64,000 nt of DNA, from positions 62,001 through 126,000 of the forward strand of contig NZ_MWQY01000010.1 of assembly GCF_002087085.1 (NCBI RefSeq), in the 5' to 3' direction. Position numbers: made by a program. Positions 1-18,000 of the stretch are shown here, piece after piece (the first letter of the stretch is position 1; each line of letters starts with the position of its first letter).

Positions 1-3000
1 GGCGGATAAAAAAACTCAATCCACCCCGGAACTAATCCCAGGGACCAGAGTCCCGGTCCCCGCTCTGCCCTCTTTTAAACCTGAATTGGATACCTGCCGT
101 ATTTCTCCCGCGCCTCCATCATGGCTGCATAGTTTTCCAGGGTGGTTCCGTTCTCCAGGCCGTTTCCGCTGGCCAGGACCAGACCTCCTCCAGGGGCTGC
201 ATTCTGGATGGCGTATTGTGCTTCCCGCTCCACATCCTCCGGACTTCCCTGGATGAGGGTCTCGCAGTTCACCCCTCCAAAAAAGCAGAGCCTGCCGCGG
301 TACTTCTCCTTCAGGAGCTTGAAGTCCATCCCGATACTCGACTGGATACCGTGCCAGCCATCAACCCCCGCCTCCACCAGGTCATCCAGAATATCCCAGG
401 TTCGTCCGTCGGTGTGTTTGATAAAATAGCCCCCCTTGGCGTGGGTGGCCTCAACCTGTTTTCTGATGCCCGGCAGAATAAACTCGGCGAACCGTTCATA
501 ACCCATCATCAGGCCCCGGTTATCCGCATAGTCATCCGTGGGCATAACGGCGTCGGCTCCGGCATCGAGAAAGGCGTTTATATAGGCGATACTGCGGTTA
601 ACATAAACCTCCGAGGCCTTCTTAACGAAATCCGGATCAAGGATCATCCGGACCATGTACTCCTCGATTCCCACGGTCTGCTTGTAGGCGAAGGTCCCGT
701 CCAGGGGCAGGCGGGCAATAATGAAATGGGTTTTCTTCATTTCAGCTATTACCCCCCGGATTACCTCCAGTTCGCTCTCATCAACCTTAAAGTCTTCATC
801 CGCATCCGGCAGCTCGTCAATGGTCATTTCGGTGTTGTAGACCTGGCTGACAAGCTGTCCGACCCCCGGATTGTAATGAAACTGCTGTCCGGAATCATCC
901 TCCCAGGAGTACTCCCCCAGCATTTTGGGCTTTTTATACTCCCTGTCCGCTGGGGAGGCGGGAATACGTATGTAGTCATGACCGAGGAGCTTCGGCAGCC
1001 CGGTCAGGGTGCTGATGGAATCCTGTATATAGTCGTCCCTGCGGCCGTCCCAGCAGGCCTTAAGTTCGGCGAAGCCGTTTCCGTACATGACCTCCCGCTT
1101 GAGGTATTTCTCCACCAGACTGTGGTGAATATGGTTTTCCCCCATGGGGACAAGATCCGGCTCCCGGTGCTGGAGCTGAGCGATTACCCGTTCTCGTGGC
1201 AACAAAATACAACCTCCTGGTACTGATGATCAGACTGTCTGCACGTCTTCTGCTTATAATGCAAAATACATGCCAAAAAAATCAAATGAAACAACTTAAT
1301 AAATGCATATACCACATGCACTTAAAAACCACAATACTCTGTATGCACCGAACCGCGTCTCGTGTGTCGCCAGGATGCGAAACACGGCTGCATCATATGT
1401 TGCACGGTGCAACATTACTATCGATCTGACGCTGGTTCTACAGGTCTTCGCCCATCACCATGGCATGCTGCGCCGACACGGGACTTTCGCAGGCAACCAT
1501 CTCTGCCGCGCAGAGATAACGTGCCTTGTCCGGCAGTTTTTCCCCGTCTCTCTCAGCATAATCCCTGATATAATTGAGAACTCTTATTCTTTTTTCATCG
1601 CCGGTTACAGCGGTCTTCTGAATGATGAAATCCAGAAGCAGGGGCGGGTACTCCGGTCCGTGCAGGTAAGCGATCAGCCTGGACAAAGATTCAGAATTAC
1701 CGGATTCCGGGATTTCCCCTCTCAAGGCATTCAGGCCTTCCTTCGAATCCTGCAGATACAGGGAAAAATGGGAATAAAACCATAAGCCTGTTTGCAGCAG
1801 TCCGGCGGCACTGAGAATCAGGTCGTCGATAATGTGGGGATGAGGACAGCCGGATATTTTTTCGAAAATCAACGGAAGGGCCTCAATCCGTTCCATGATT
1901 TCCAGCGCTTTAACAAGGTAAATTATTTCCCTGGGATTCATATTTTCCCTCAGACTATTGATGACTTTTTCCTCCAGTCCGTCGGAGCAAAAATATGCAA
2001 GCGCAAGGGCGGCCTTGCTTTTCAGCAGGTAGTCCTGTGAATCAAGGGCTTCCGTAAGAGCGTCCTCGGCTTCCTGTCTGATTCGCATGTCCGTGCATTT
2101 ACCGGATTTAGCCAGATCCCCCAGAATTCTGGCGGCGATGTGAGCCGTCGTAAAGGGGTTGTTTCTGACCTGATCGATAAGGAGTCCGAGGGTATTTTTA
2201 TCGGCCCCAAACTGTTCCAGTGACAGCAGGGTCTCGGTCCGCACAAAAATACTGGGAGACTTGAGGCGTTTATGCAGTTCCGAAATGGTAATCCTGTCTT
2301 TTGTTCCCCCCATGGCGAGAACAATACTGCGTTCCTCGTCTTCAGACCTAACCCGCTGAAGCTTGTTCATATAGTACATGGCCTTAAGTGCCCGAGCACT
2401 GAATACGGCGCGAATTGCAGCGGGAATCGCAATGCTTCTGGCGGCAGGCAGATATGCCAGTACGATAATATTGGCAATAAAAAACAGACTTGAACCGAGA
2501 AAATATACGCGAAACGAGATAAGGCTCTGGTTGAAATATCCCTGCAACCAGCCAAGCAGGAAGCCCCCGCCCAGCGACCCGATCATACCGAAAAAACCAC
2601 GGGCCATGTTTATAATTATGCCCAGATCAAGATGATCTTCCGGTTTCGTTGTGGACAGAAAGTAGATATCTGCAACAGCGTTAAATCCCCAGTAGGTCAT
2701 TTGTTCAAGAAAAAAAGCTGTACAGAGAAAGAAAATTGTAAGAAACCACGAAGAAAAAACCGGAGCCGCAATAACCAGTAACAGGAACAGCAAACGCAGG
2801 GCATTGAAAAAAAAGTATACCGGTCGCGGACCTATACGGTCCGAAAGAAATCGCAGTAATCCCGCCATGGTCAGCGCCCCAAGGGCACCAGAAACCGTAA
2901 AGTACACGACCATATTATCAGGCTGCGTGTACACATCCTTTGCATAAACAACGATGAAACCAAGGGACATTCCTATGCCTATGTTGCTGAACATGACAAG

Positions 3001-15000: not shown

Positions 15001-18000
15001 GGAATTGAAAACATAGCGCATGGTTACCTCGGTAAACAGAACAAGAACCAGGGCCATTACCAGATACTTTATGAACTGTCCGGTTGCCTCGCTCAATGCA
15101 AAGACTGAACGGGCAAAACCGCGGACAATGGCCCAGTCATTTTCCAGGGCTTCTTTTCCCATCGGATAACTCCTGTAAGACTCCCTGCCGGCTCTGACTG
15201 ATCCGGCAGGGGTTATTTGGTTAAGTGCTACTTTATGTCGAAACGTTCGCAAACCTCTTTCCAGGCCATGGCACTGTCATAGATTCGCTTGTAATTGGGA
15301 TCCTTGGCAGACTCTTCCTGGAAATACTCCAGGGATTTCTCGTTCAAGAGATCGATAATGTCCTGGGGAACCGGTTCCACGATGGTTCCGGCGTCGATAT
15401 ATTTCTGCACTGCTTCCACATCACGGTTTACCGACTCGGTGTAGTACTCCCTGGCGATCTGGTCTGTCGCCATGGTAACAATTGTCTTGAGATTCTCCGG
15501 CAGTTTGTCCCAGGTATCCCCGTTGACATAGATACACTGGGTATCCGTAGGTGCCCGGGAAGGAGACAGGTACATATACTTCGCAACCTCGTGGAATCCC
15601 ATATCCCAGTTCAGCGAGGGGTTGATGTATTCGAACCCGTCAATAACGCCTCTTTTCGCAGATTCATAAATCTCTCCCCCGGGGAGAAAGACCGGGGTCG
15701 CTCCCATTTTCTGGAAAATTGCGTTCAGCGCTGTAGTCCCGAGCCGTACCTTCCATCCCTTGATATCCGCAACAGACCGGAGGGGTTTGGTGGAGTGGGC
15801 CCAGACCTCAGCAGGGCTGAGAGTCAGGATACCGACATAGTGAACCCCCAGATCATCGTAAAGGTCCTGGGCTATTTTACGACCCTCCAGCTTCATCCAC
15901 ATCTCGAGCTGATTCGAGGTCAGTCCTCCCGGATACTGGGTAAAGAACACGGCGCCGGGAAGGTAGCCGATTGTCCAGCCCGGAGGTCCGTGAACCGCTT
16001 CCACAGATCCCGACATGACCGAATCAAACTCTTTTCCACCGGGAATAACCGATCCGGCGGTATACGGTGTAATAAGGAGCTGCCCGTCGGAAGCAATTTC
16101 AACCACCTCCGCGAAACGCTGAGCCGCTTCGTAGGTCCTGTCTCCGGCGGGAGCCCAGGACTGCAGCCTCCAGCGTATAACCTCCTTTTTAGGAGCCGCC
16201 GCTTCAGCCGTTGCATCCTCCCCTGAGGAACCGCCGCAGGCGATCAGCATACCGAAGGTCAATACGATGAGTATCAGGAAAACTATACCCCTCTGTCCTC
16301 TGTTCATTCCGTACCTCCTGGTCAATATAAAGCGCAAAGAAAATCTGCGCCTGAAGGTGGATATTCAAGAAGCGTACCAGCTGCAGCTCCACAGAAAGAG
16401 ATTCGGGGAAAAACATCTTAAATGTTCAGCATCTTCTATCTTATTGACGGGTAAGTATTTAATTACCTGATAAACAGGCTTGCCAGGGTTATCGGTGCAT
16501 ATGCGCCCGTATACCGGGATATACAAGAAAGTACATGCTGTAAAAAACTGCAGCCGGTGCGGTATTCTCCGGCACTGTGCTGCGTATTTTCTTGTCGATT
16601 TTCCGGGCCCGTGCAATAATAGGTATAATGGATGCTTATGCGATCCTGCCGTACAAAGGCCTGGTGGAAATTGCTTCGGAAACCGGGAGAGAACTGAAAC
16701 TCGACCTGAAGATTTTCGAGGGTGAAACCGAAGAGGCAATACCCTTCGCCATGGATGCCCAGAAACGGGGGGCGGACTGCATCATCAGCCGGGGGGGAAC
16801 AGCCTCCATAATTGAACGGTATGTCAATGTTCCCATTGTACGGGTCCCGGTAAGTGAACTGGACCTCCTGCGAATTCTCTATCCTTTGAAAGGCCTGGAC
16901 AGAAAGATCCTGGTTGTGGGCTTCAGAAACGCTGTATTCCGGGCCAGGTCCGCCGCACGGGTTTTAGGTCTTCAAATCCAGGAACTCCCGATCCCCTATG
17001 AGGCTGCCGACTATAATTTTGACCATATCAGACGCAGCGCGGAACACCTTATCCGCCATCACGGAATCGATACAATTATCGGGGATCAGACCGCCTTTAT
17101 AAATCTCAGATCCTACTGCGAGAGTCAGTACCTGATAACATCCAGCAAGGATGATTTTCTCACAGCCCTCAGGAATTCACAGCTCCTGAACACGGATGGT
17201 CAGCGGGAACAGCAGGATCAGATCCAGGTCGTGTTGAATGCTGTGCAGGAGGGTATTATCTCTACCGACACCCATGGAAGAGTAACCAGCTTCAATATAA
17301 AGGCGGCGGAGATTTTCGGAATGGAACCGGGTATGGTGATAGGCGCCTCTCTGGATGAACTGGCCGGGTATTTCAGGGATTTCGAAGAACTGAAATCCAC
17401 AATCTCCCTTACCCTTCGCAATGGAAACCCGGAGAGCATACAACTCTCCCGCCCGAAGGGCCCCGAGGTCTACGAGATCAATTCCGCCCCCCTGGTATCA
17501 CAAAAGGGAATTCACGGGACAGTGACAACTATCATACGAAGCAGTCACGCTCATAGCGGTAAGAGCGCCGGGAATAAGCACCCATCTGCCGGAACATTCA
17601 ACACTCATTACAGTTTCAAGGATATCCTGGGCAGGGATGAAGCCTTTGTACGTGTGCTGGCCGTCGCCCGGGCCTATACCATGACGGATGCCACAATCCT
17701 GATTGAAGGGGAAAGCGGTGTGGGAAAGGAGATGTTCGCCCAGAGTATTCACGCCTCGGGGCCAAGAAAAGAGGGTCCTTTCGTGGCGGTAAACTGTGCC
17801 TCCATACCTGAACCGCTTTTGGAGAGTGAACTCTTCGGCTACGAGCAGGGAGCATTTACCGGAGCCTCCAGGGCGGGACAGAAAGGACTCTTCGAGCTGG
17901 CCGACGGAGGAACTCTTTTCCTGGACGAAATAAGCGAGATTGATCAGAAAATGCAGATGAATCTTCTGCGGGTCCTGGAAGAACGCCGGATTCGCCGCAT

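Follow-up and report, generated by a model that had tools for sequence, protein, structure and literature searches.

Introduction

The UroD superfamily includes, besides haloalkane dehalogenases, the O-demethylases MtvB, OdmB, VdmB and MtoB, as set out in the portions of a 2026 paper on which we draw (PMC13222342). According to those portions, every MTI depends on a corrinoid protein together with an activase; zinc is present in the veratrole and vanillate enzymes and absent from Cdm and the Moorella enzyme, and CP, MTII and AE were sought within five genes of the MTI (PMC13222342).

The window studied here, a 64,000-nt stretch of a spirochaete genome that is 97.22% complete, carries three members of this superfamily, UROD1, UROD2 and UROD3. 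We see about an even chance that these genes and their paralogues are substrate-specific methyltransferases encoded beside importers, with one corrinoid carrier shared in trans. Positions in the window are given as plain ranges, and those carrying a contig name count along that contig.

Results

A profile search of the whole genome finds 15 URO-D (PF01208) matches above the Pfam cut-off, and a weak sixteenth relative (C25:21948-23033), with neither a Pfam nor an NCBIfam match, scores 36.8 bits with an HMM of our own built from the paralogues. Three of the 16 copies are not plainly whole, being placed on a 769-base contig (C60), at a contig end (C12:321746) or in a split gene (C1:166493/166849). 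The copies form old and divergent lineages, with 18-33% identity; C79:85457 is 77% identical to UROD3. Across the whole genome ALAD, Porphobil_deam and HEM4 give 0 matches each, and TP_methylase gives one only. No copy scores above 115.1 for hemE (TIGR01464), whose cut-off is 302.95, and the curated families closest to every copy with a match are MtaA-type methyltransferases, ahead of hemE. The initial annotation was therefore right to count 16 URO-D-superfamily genes, to find no HemB, HemC or HemD and to regard no copy as HemE: no gene supplies the substrate, and the three window genes and most of the 12-13 paralogues elsewhere in the genome are not HemE. In a sample of the class, 18 of the 22 genomes with at least 10 URO-D matches give no ALAD match.

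Two copies, C19:30055 and C12:321746, align over the full length of the Pfam URO-D model (253.9 and 250.1 bits), and the latter adjoins a flavoprotein of the Amino_oxidase family, as might be expected if one of them were a true uroporphyrinogen decarboxylase working on scavenged tetrapyrrole. That reading is close to refuted, since true HemE of the same class reach 390-417 bits on the Pfam model, the hemE scores of the two copies (115.1 and 99.8) are exceeded by those for MtaA/CmuA (TIGR01463; 225.2 and 218.6, cut-off 235.4), both retain an H-I-C...C pattern aligned to MtaA, and the best-scoring family for the flavoprotein is CrtI rather than protoporphyrinogen oxidase.

In the window, UROD1 (75..1205, on the minus strand like every feature up to position 16337; 376 aa) matches Pfam URO-D at 89.2 bits and lies below the hemE and MtaA/CmuA cut-offs. 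It has 588 homologues at E <= 1e-10, and the top Foldseek match of its AF2 model (pLDDT 95.3) is MtaA (4ay7; TM 0.70/0.77, 20% identity), in alignment with which it reads H-T-D-G at the H-x-C position and Asn where MtaA has the C-terminal Cys. Next to it lies a 749-aa MFS transporter fused to HEAT repeats (1438..3687; HEAT_2 above the Pfam cut-off, MFS_1 below), which also adjoins the UROD1 orthologue in L045. There follow a DHDPS-family protein of the pyruvate-aldolase type (3749..4663; Pfam DHDPS 102.8 bits, under all NCBIfam equivalog cut-offs), a beta-hydroxyacid-dehydrogenase-like protein with NAD_binding_2 and DUF1932 (4706..5551; Pfam/NCBIfam profiles) and a member of the D-2-hydroxyacid dehydrogenase family (5582..6544; Pfam 2-Hacid_dh_C, 181.6 bits).

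UROD2 (6564..7757; 397 aa, Pfam 64.1 bits) is directly downstream of TctA, the large membrane subunit of a TTT importer (7785..9296; 410.7 bits), which is accompanied by TctB (9315..9806; 53.2 bits) and the solute-binding protein TctC (9900..10892; 123 bits, with distant PDB relatives of at most 109 bits). It reads H284-S-C286 and lacks the C-terminal Cys; D250, E270, Y282, H284, S285 and C286 are invariant in its subfamily, and H306 and C329 nearly so. No PDB sequence is related to it at E <= 1, and its AF2 model (pLDDT 95.1) gives its best TM-score with 4ay7 (0.61/0.71), HemE entries coming first by E-value. UROD3 (11085..12104; 339 aa, Pfam 55.3 bits) reads H-S-D-G and has no significant relative among PDB sequences. 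Beside it, a 341-aa orphan (12189..13214) has no Pfam or NCBIfam match; its ESM Atlas model matches transketolase-family models (TM 0.78 by query) and, as a lead only, may resemble a transketolase N-terminal/DXS N-terminal (thiamine-diphosphate) domain. A TRAP system comes next, with the large membrane subunit DctM (13280..14620; 264.1 bits), DctQ (14617..15252; 82.5 bits) and the solute-binding protein DctP (15228..16337; 135.6 bits; PDB matches 2zzv, 7e9y and 7ug8), whose closest solved relatives carry lactate- or ketoacid-binding names. On the plus strand, a sigma-54 activator with PrpR_N and PAS is recognised by profile matches (16577..18559); another sigma-54 activator lies immediately left of the window (C2:60122-62035).

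The genome holds 38 DctM and 8 TctA. By our own gene calls, a TRAP/TTT component is no more than two genes away from 9 of 16 URO-D genes and from 173 of the 3467 others (odds ratio 24.5, Fisher p 2.0e-8), which confirms the earlier claim of an adjacency beyond chance for nine copies; these fall in six loci and are therefore not independent. UROD1 is six genes away from the nearest such component. A tie to TRAP/TTT as such is not supported, as the same subfamilies elsewhere stand beside ABC, MFS and SSF transporters and glycoside hydrolases. Among 167 annotated neighbours (114 + 53) of UROD1-like and UROD3-like genes in other genomes we find MR_MLE (5), 2-Hacid_dh (3), Ldh_2 (2), LarA-like proteins (3) and UxaC and, on the glycan side, GH2, GH4, GH29, GH31, GH38 (3 loci), GH42, sulfatases and sugar ABC/MFS/SSF transporters. 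What the copies go with is thus carbohydrate and sugar-acid loci generally.

These sugar-acid enzymes, glycoside hydrolases, sulfatases and sugar transporters favour the main rival to a shared carrier, a possible though less likely one, in which the TRAP/TTT- and glycan-linked copies are corrinoid-independent, metal-assisted sugar-acid enzymes whose direct substrates would be imported sugars or sugar acids, converted by decarboxylation, isomerisation or some comparable enolisation. None of the 167 neighbours has a B12-binding domain, which likewise favours this rival; both this and the sugar-acid and glycan surroundings, unlike the usual partners of O-demethylases, tell against a shared carrier. 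Nor does any B12-binding domain lie beside the nine TRAP/TTT-linked copies found here. On the other side, the closest relatives are methyltransferases, our literature search gave no URO-D-fold enzyme of such chemistry, and we know of none with corrinoid-free sugar-acid chemistry.

We take the aligned H-x-C...C residues to be the zinc ligands of MtaA. In the motif column, seven of the 16 copies read H-x-C, seven H-x-D (one H-N-D included), one F-V-C and one H-L-H, and the C-terminal Cys is retained in three. With several site classes, two copies of which (C19:30055 and C12:321746) keep an MtaA-like H-x-C...C near the MtaA/CmuA cut-off, the copies are not of one kind, contrary to the framing of the initial annotation. 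Among the 118 full-length representatives nearest to UROD1, 87 read H, D, E/D/Q, N at the aligned site and 15 read H, C, Q, H; of 21 with Cys, 17 pair it with His, and of 97 with Asp, 90 pair it with Asn. If the copies worked without corrinoid, this remodelled site, above all the H-x-D...E/D/Q...N class to which UROD1 belongs, would be a hard-metal or acid-base centre, and the paired residues agree with this; however, the pairing may merely mark two clades. Nor is a changed ligand set an argument against methyl transfer, because the published MTI, as far as the cited portions go, are both zinc-containing and zinc-free (PMC13222342).

The Cys-retaining copies (H-I-C...C, H-S-C) could instead move the methyl of an imported donor onto a thiol by MetE/BHMT-like direct alkyl transfer, again without corrinoid. 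MetE structures are indeed the next fold matches behind MtaA and HemE, the H-x-C motif of seven copies is complete (H-x-C...C) in two, and C19:30055 comes directly after a DctPQM system, with no corrinoid protein close by. We nevertheless consider this very improbable: the two complete-pattern copies score near the cut-off of a methyl-corrinoid family, the H-x-D copies are not covered, and the modelled docking of UROD2 described below favours a corrinoid partner.

As initially annotated, and as the B12-binding matches and the neighbourhood bear out, a single copy (C2:131184-132536) adjoins a corrinoid protein, together with CobW, a PocR-AraC regulator and RACo. The corrinoid protein (C2:132698-133369), next to which RACo is encoded, lies ~6.7 kb beyond the window's right-hand edge. 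Five other B12-binding matches comprise two of sensor/regulator types, one MetH-like protein of ~1130 residues, and C79:104476 and C1:16307; by a typing that took in the first three and C2:132698-133369, the latter is the genome's single methyltransferase-type corrinoid protein. Its cluster has one methyltransferase only, and the genome contains no stand-alone pterin-binding MT2 (MeTr-type), its matches being MetH and a FolP-like gene; the corrinoid protein must therefore have some partner encoded elsewhere. MttB is missing from the genome as well. The lack of MT2 and MttB favours corrinoid independence and, as it leaves the methyl sink not evident, weighs against a shared carrier. The same is true of the extreme copy-to-carrier ratio, which is 16 to 1 here and ~8- to 15-fold in four other Spirochaetia families (URO-D versus B12-binding_2 matches 46/3, 45/5, 46/6 and 30/2, the second counts taking in MetH and sensor proteins). 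It is also true of the URO-D genes that do adjoin corrinoid proteins, four of four in other genomes and the one here, which have neither H-x-C-G nor H-x-D-G and therefore belong to other subfamilies. Scattered hints from gene context favour a corrinoid partner: in G215, a copy of the H-S-C...H-N type has a corrinoid protein, RACo, FTHFS and FolD three genes away, one UROD1-like representative contains an MttB C-terminus, and one neighbour weakly resembles the MetH activation domain.

The complex model of UROD2, the sole copy modelled, with the corrinoid protein reaches 0.78 (runs 0.76, 0.78 and 0.78), versus 0.00 for the best of three controls, which contain neither a cognate nor a HemE pair. 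Of 157 solved complexes 116 attain the docking mark, as do 2 of 215 mismatched pairs, counts that apply only roughly to our own alignments. At least 80% of the contacts are common to the runs, and the partner has a pLDDT of at least 81. Modelled contacts on the corrinoid protein include 115, 118 and 191, beside the invariant H113, G116 and G189-G190, and those on UROD2 include 291 and 310, sequence-near to H284/C286.

In the class sample (n=81), RACo occurs in 37 of the 42 genomes that have a URO-D match, in 0 of the 39 that lack one, and in all 22 that hold at least 10 matches. It is found, too, in 5/5 genomes that carry an H-x-D type relative and come from other families of the phylum, and in 4/4 Planctomycetota or Lentisphaerae genomes with an H-C-C...H type relative; of 14 control genomes, only one gives a RACo match. 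This presence with every expansion examined, like the modelled docking, argues against corrinoid-independent enzymes; the RACo-positive expansion genomes are kin, none is without an ordinary URO-D/corrinoid cluster of its own, and RACo is a necessary but not a sufficient condition for corrinoid use by the copies.

Discussion

Based on the above data, we propose that the copies belong to the corrinoid-dependent branch of the UroD superfamily, as do the MTI of the O-demethylase and haloalkane systems. Each would be encoded next to the importer (TTT, TRAP) and regulator (sigma-54/GntR/AraC/LacI) of its own substrate, and not next to the corrinoid protein. The methyl group of a methylated organic or sugar acid, once imported, would pass to Co(I) of the C2:132698-133369 corrinoid protein, held reduced by RACo, and could be unloaded by an H-x-C...C copy (C19:30055, C12:321746) or by the copy of the corrinoid cluster, while the demethylated acid would proceed to the neighbouring dehydrogenases and aldolase. 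We infer that UROD1 and UROD3, which read H-x-D, follow this scheme too. The initial annotation implied a corrinoid-free reading, against which speak the docking of UROD2, RACo in 22/22 versus 0/39 genomes and the UroD-superfamily MTI described in the cited portions of PMC13222342; what it held only as a caveat, one corrinoid protein serving several copies in trans, now looks the better reading.

With the published MTI (OdmB, VdmB, MtvB, MtoB, CdmB), as far as the cited portions describe them (PMC13222342), the copies have in common the URO-D TIM-barrel fold and the occurrence of many substrate-specific paralogues in anaerobes. In contrast to them, none of the three window copies and none of the nine TRAP/TTT-linked ones has a CP, MTII or AE within five genes; they are flanked instead by TTT/TRAP importers and sugar-acid enzymes, and the genome has no pterin-type MTII. 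Sequence likeness to CdmB is negligible (UROD1 E 0.82), and the published substrates are methoxylated aromatics and halomethanes, whereas imported methylated acids would be the substrates here. MtaA (4ay7) is the best solved fold for UROD1 and the top PDB sequence match for three copies, yet no copy reaches the MtaA/CmuA cut-off, and the window copies read H-T-D...N (UROD1), H-S-C without the C-terminal Cys (UROD2) and H-S-D (UROD3). HemE shares the Pfam family and the fold, and is set apart by the low hemE scores of the copies and the lack of HemB, HemC and HemD matches in this genome.

In Eubacterium limosum, MtqC/MtqA are common to several MTI enzymes encoded apart. MtqA is described as the MTII of quaternary-amine conversion (PMC13222342). 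The MTI there are of the MttB family, which is absent from this genome, but one carrier for several separately encoded MTI is the very arrangement that we propose here.

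A URO-D family without a uroporphyrinogen supply

The initial annotation held that this genome carries many uroporphyrinogen-decarboxylase (URO-D, PF01208) genes and lacks the means to make uroporphyrinogen, and both statements stand. Fifteen genes lie above the Pfam cut-off, a weak 16th relative at C25:21948 is detected only with our own paralogue HMM, and the genome, which is 97.22% complete, returns no match to ALAD (PF00490), Porphobil_deam (PF01379) or HEM4 (PF02602) and a single match to TP_methylase. No copy reaches the HemE equivalog cut-off of 302.95 bits (TIGR01464), the best of the 16 scoring 115.1 (C19:30055), and the three window copies, UROD1 to UROD3, have no hemE match at E ≤ 0.001. 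The MtaA/CmuA cut-off of 235.4 bits (TIGR01463) is likewise beyond all copies, with best scores of 225.2 and 218.6, and 76.9, 32.9 and 26.8 for the window copies. Paralogues share 18–33% identity, except for three recent pairs at 75%, 77% and 70%.

Genes were called with a dicodon model and dynamic programming. The model missed the MtaA-like copy at C19:30055-31122 (L022:4055-5122), which we added by hand; its frame is open, and the miss suggests an atypical composition. The URO-D gene at C1:166493-167541 (L025:6493-7541) is split into parts of 118 and 230 residues that meet at an overlapping TGATG; for the first part there is a weak alignment (E 0.011) to the N-terminal region of a further copy.

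The family had also been tied to TRAP and TTT carboxylate importers. With our own gene calls, 9 of 16 URO-D genes lie within two genes of a TRAP or TTT component, against 173 of 3467 other genes (odds ratio 24.5, Fisher p 2.0e-8), a test that overstates independence because the nine copies fall in six loci. UROD1 is six genes away from the nearest such component. The adjacency holds in this genome, where most importers happen to be of the TRAP and TTT types (38 DctM, 8 TctA).

Organization of the window genes

The three window copies belong to a single run of 14 minus-strand genes (window 75-16337, from gene calls), flanked on both sides by sigma-54 activators with PrpR_N domains. In transcription order, the run begins with DctP, DctQ and DctM (16337-13280), followed by a 341-residue protein with no Pfam or NCBIfam match (13214-12189), UROD3 (12104-11085), TctC, TctB and TctA (10892-7785) and UROD2 (7757-6564). 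Next come a 2-hydroxyacid dehydrogenase, a beta-hydroxyacid-dehydrogenase-like protein and a DHDPS-family protein, in that order, then a 749-residue MFS-HEAT fusion (1438-3687), and the run closes with UROD1 (1205-75). The pair formed by the MFS-HEAT fusion and UROD1 is also present in L045.

The whole cluster is kept in a genome of the same genus (G204). The closest named relatives of UROD1 come from an uncultured Spirochaetaceae (L033, 94%) and from Marispirochaeta sp. (L034, 80%), where a TctCBA system is directly followed by the UROD1 orthologue and a second URO-D copy. Both UROD2/UROD3-type pairs of the window genome flank a TTT system; an obligate pairing of UROD2 with UROD3 was considered and rejected, as it is absent outside the genus and kept at one of 12 loci, that of G204.

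The solved proteins nearest to the window DctP are named as binding lactate or ketoacids, those nearest to the DctPs of contig C19 are 7bbr and SiaP-like entries, from whose names no ligand can be read, and TctC has only distant solved relatives. No substrate can be named from the relatives found.

The ESM Atlas model of the 341-residue protein resembles transketolase N-terminal and DXS N-terminal models (TM 0.78 by query), and its G204 orthologue is only 50% identical, against 84–99% for the neighbouring genes. Elsewhere in the genome, the URO-D copy C1:295830 adjoins split transketolase N and C subunits. The G+C content drops to 0.449 at window 20001-24000, compared with 0.51–0.58 in the rest of the window.

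Fold and site classes

The AF2 models of UROD1 and UROD2 (pLDDT 95.3 and 95.1) retrieve MtaA and HemE first in Foldseek and MetE next, and have the URO-D TIM-barrel fold. MetE lies behind both, with query TM values of 0.48–0.58 for UROD1 and 0.30–0.49 for UROD2, and there is no Meth_synt Pfam match, which speaks against MetE membership. UROD2 and UROD3 have no significant sequence relative in the PDB, and an ESM Atlas search with UROD1 gave no usable match among named clusters other than PF01208.

Sites were aligned through phmmer alignments to MtaA (4ay7), and read at the positions of the "LHICG" and "PGCG" motifs of that enzyme, which we take to be its zinc ligands. The complete H-x-C...C pattern is found in two of the 16 copies, C19:30055 and C12:321746, which are 70% identical and both read H-I-C...C. 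It is absent from all three window copies: the site is H-T-D...N in UROD1, H-S-C with no C-terminal Cys in UROD2 and H-S-D in UROD3. The UROD2 pattern recurs in C79:86798, C19:46682, C19:50839 and a fragment on C60 (two of this group have His in place of the Cys), and H-[ST]-D unites UROD1 and UROD3 with C79:85457, C1:295830, C13:8859 and C7:49126. The copy linked to a corrinoid protein on C2 reads F-V-C...C. Judging from these residues, the URO-D copies are not of one kind.

Of the best 150 relatives of UROD1, 118 are full-length. All of these keep D225 and G267, and 114 keep H264. The aligned site is H, D, E/D/Q, N in 87 of them, while 15 have H, C, Q, H. Of 21 sequences with Cys, 17 have His, and of 97 with Asp, 90 have Asn, a pairing that may reflect a coordinated change at a functional site or may simply separate two clades.

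A neighbour of C12:321746 that looked HemY-like is instead CrtI-family-like; this flavoprotein of 509 residues (C12:320162-321691; L027:8162-9691) directly adjoins the MtaA-like copy at the contig end.

A single corrinoid carrier and its modelled complex with UROD2

As the initial annotation stated, only one copy lies with a corrinoid protein. This carrier (C2:132698-133369, 223 residues), about 6.7 kb past the right end of the window, is encoded with one URO-D gene, CobW, a PocR-AraC regulator and the corrinoid activase RACo (C2:134780-136621). It is the only methyltransferase-type carrier among the four inspected of six B12-binding matches, the others being one sensor type by a histidine kinase, one HTH regulator by a photolyase and one MetH-like protein. 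The idea of hidden carriers was dropped for the B12-binding proteins on C34 and C21, which are of sensor or regulator types. Neither a stand-alone pterin-binding second methyltransferase (MT2, MTII) nor MttB was found in the genome. Since the corrinoid cluster holds a single methyltransferase and both MT2 and MttB are missing, the carrier must have at least one partner encoded elsewhere.

A model of the complex between UROD2 and the carrier scores 0.78 (median of three runs), against 0.00 for the best of three controls. This passes a mark that 116 of 157 solved complexes attain, as do 2 of 215 mismatched pairs, counts that are only rough with our own alignments. At least 80% of contacts are shared among the runs, and partner pLDDT is at least 81. 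Modelled contacts involve residues 115, 118 and 191 of the carrier, beside the invariant H113, G116 and G189-G190, and residues 291 and 310 of UROD2, close in sequence to H284/C286. The model supports a putative binding of UROD2 to the carrier, as backing rather than demonstration.

The best-supported reading, whose chances we regard as evenly balanced, is that the copies are substrate-specific UroD-superfamily methyltransferases, each encoded beside its importer, that would use one corrinoid protein and its activase in trans. Candidate substrate classes are methylated sugar acids and sugars, and methoxylated or methylthio carboxylates. The main alternative is that these proteins are corrinoid-free, metal-assisted carbohydrate enzymes. 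We consider it possible if rather doubtful for the family, and most plausible for the H-x-D...N class. Two points speak against a shared carrier: no methyl sink is evident in the genome, and the modelled docking covers UROD2 and three controls, none of them cognate or HemE.

DUF1638 was discarded as a corrinoid-linked gene, being present here only as a fusion with a hydantoinase-A-like ATPase (919 residues, C12:140485-143244; L166:6485-9244), far from any URO-D gene. In another genome, G225, DUF1638 lies in a corrinoid methyltransferase cluster.

Neighbours in other genomes

The 114 annotated neighbours of UROD1-like genes include MR_MLE (5), 2-Hacid_dh (3), LarA-like (3), Ldh_2 (2) and GFO_IDH_MocA (2), together with UxaC, GH2, GH4, a fucosidase, a sulfatase and an RGL11-like protein; transporters are of MFS, SSF and ABC types, with TRAP components in about six loci. 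Around UROD3-like genes of other Spirochaetia, 53 annotated neighbours include GH38 in three loci, GH31, GH42, arabinofuranosidase, fucosidase and sulfatase as well as sugar ABC systems and LacI/AraC regulators. These families show that the URO-D genes go with carbohydrate and sugar-acid loci in general, rather than with TRAP and TTT in particular.

A B12-binding domain occurs in none of the 114 neighbours and none of the 53, and one UROD1-like neighbour weakly resembles the MetH activation domain. The H-x-D...E/D/Q...N class, comprising UROD1, UROD3 and their relatives, has expanded to dozens of copies in single genomes of free-living anaerobic Spirochaetia and of other phyla. For this class we raise the idea, which we judge unlikely, of a new corrinoid-independent, metal- or acid-base-assisted activity in sugar or sugar-acid breakdown on the URO-D barrel.

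Corrinoid-adjacent URO-D genes bear further on the choice. All four in genomes G215 and G225, plus the one here, lack H-x-C-G and H-x-D-G, and those of G215 and G225 sit with Pterin_bind, CobW and DUF1638 genes. This differing motif and company place them in other subfamilies, which favours corrinoid-free enzymes over a common carrier. One partial exception is an H-S-C...H-N copy in G215, three genes from a carrier, RACo, FTHFS and FolD.

Gene calls on foreign loci are length-based and rough, so that many ORFs of no family are probably not genes. No recurrent partner gene of UROD1-like genes was found on 80 metagenome contigs, and ORF clustering over 85 UROD1-like loci gave, beyond URO-D and shadow frames, no cluster in more than six. 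Metagenome contigs L101/L102 carry a tandem array of seven URO-D ORFs in about 15 kb, which adjoins a PhyH-family protein, a fucosidase and a sigma-54 response regulator. Among 12 long representatives the sole fusion concerns P0253 (514 aa), in which residues 7-124 correspond to the C-terminal end of MttB and 140-512 match the UROD1 profile at 472 bits; the two parts may be genuinely fused, or neighbouring genes may have been read through as a single one.

Distribution and co-occurrence with RACo

The observation is confirmed and reaches well beyond this genome. Of 8000 candidates scored against UROD1, 588 are related to it at E ≤ 1e-10, and proteins at about 55% identity have Clostridia, Chloroflexi and KSB3 among their source names. 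In clusters of 50% identity, its profile matches 10691 at E ≤ 0.001, 5197 at E ≤ 1e-10 and 523 at E ≤ 1e-30. Within the class, 42 of 81 genomes have URO-D matches and 22 have at least 10 (with a ceiling of 22 matches on the count), of which 18 give no ALAD match. Genuine HemE in this class is exemplified by a 417-bit match in G272. Full counts in five genomes are 46, 45, 46, 30 and 11 URO-D against 3, 5, 6, 2 and 4 B12-binding_2. From this sample and these counts, a URO-D family enlarged in the absence of heme synthesis is a general feature of free-living Spirochaetia, and the window genome is not extreme in copy number. The ratio of copies to carriers is far from a pattern of one carrier per operon, a further point for corrinoid-free enzymes.

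RACo is present in 37 of the 42 class genomes with URO-D, against 0 of the 39 without, and in all 22 with at least 10 copies. The five URO-D genomes without it have 1–3 copies, the best match being HemE-like (394–410 bits) in three. RACo also occurs in 5/5 genomes of other families with an H-x-D relative and in 4/4 Planctomycetota or Lentisphaerae genomes with an H-C-C...H relative; only 1 of 14 control genomes has a match. For a common carrier this pattern is a necessary condition and no more; the genomes are kin, and each also has an ordinary URO-D/corrinoid cluster.

Among the RACo matches listed for the 81 class genomes, 15 of 51 have one or two in-frame stop codons (TAA, TAG, TGA) within long open frames; the RACo of the window genome has none.

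Implications and relation to known systems

The lone methyltransferase of the corrinoid cluster, the UROD2-carrier model, the RACo co-occurrence and the Cdm paper (PMC13222342) together shift our view toward methyltransferases sharing one carrier. According to that paper, human UroD is the closest structural homologue of CdmB, the UroD superfamily takes in O-demethylases and haloalkane dehalogenases, and some first methyltransferases (MTIs) have zinc and others do not. It is the only publication bearing on the family found in open-access and bioRxiv literature, where no work was found tying URO-D genes to TRAP/TTT, sugar-acid or glycoside-hydrolase clusters, or spirochaete genera.

Annotation pipelines apply the name "uroporphyrinogen decarboxylase" to such genes even where the organism makes no tetrapyrroles, on a scale of 5197 clusters for the UROD1 profile alone and 30–46 copies in each free-living Spirochaetia genome. 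If the copies do share a carrier, the uptake of many different organic acids and sugars by anaerobes would be linked with demethylation via one B12 protein, corrinoid demethylation would extend past methoxylated aromatics and methylamines, and O2-free handling of methylated sugar acids and glycans would have a concrete, testable route. If they are corrinoid-free, the URO-D fold would host an undescribed chemistry, its third. In both cases, the URO-D genes of the window, three in number, make up together with their two binding proteins and the one corrinoid protein a set small enough to express and assay.

For MTI systems, PMC13222342 looks for a corrinoid protein, an MTII and an activating enzyme within about five genes; none of these lies within five genes of any window copy. 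The window copies differ in this neighbourhood from MTIs of the OdmB/VdmB/MtvB/MtoB/CdmB type, with which they have in common the URO-D TIM barrel, as modelled for UROD1 and UROD2.
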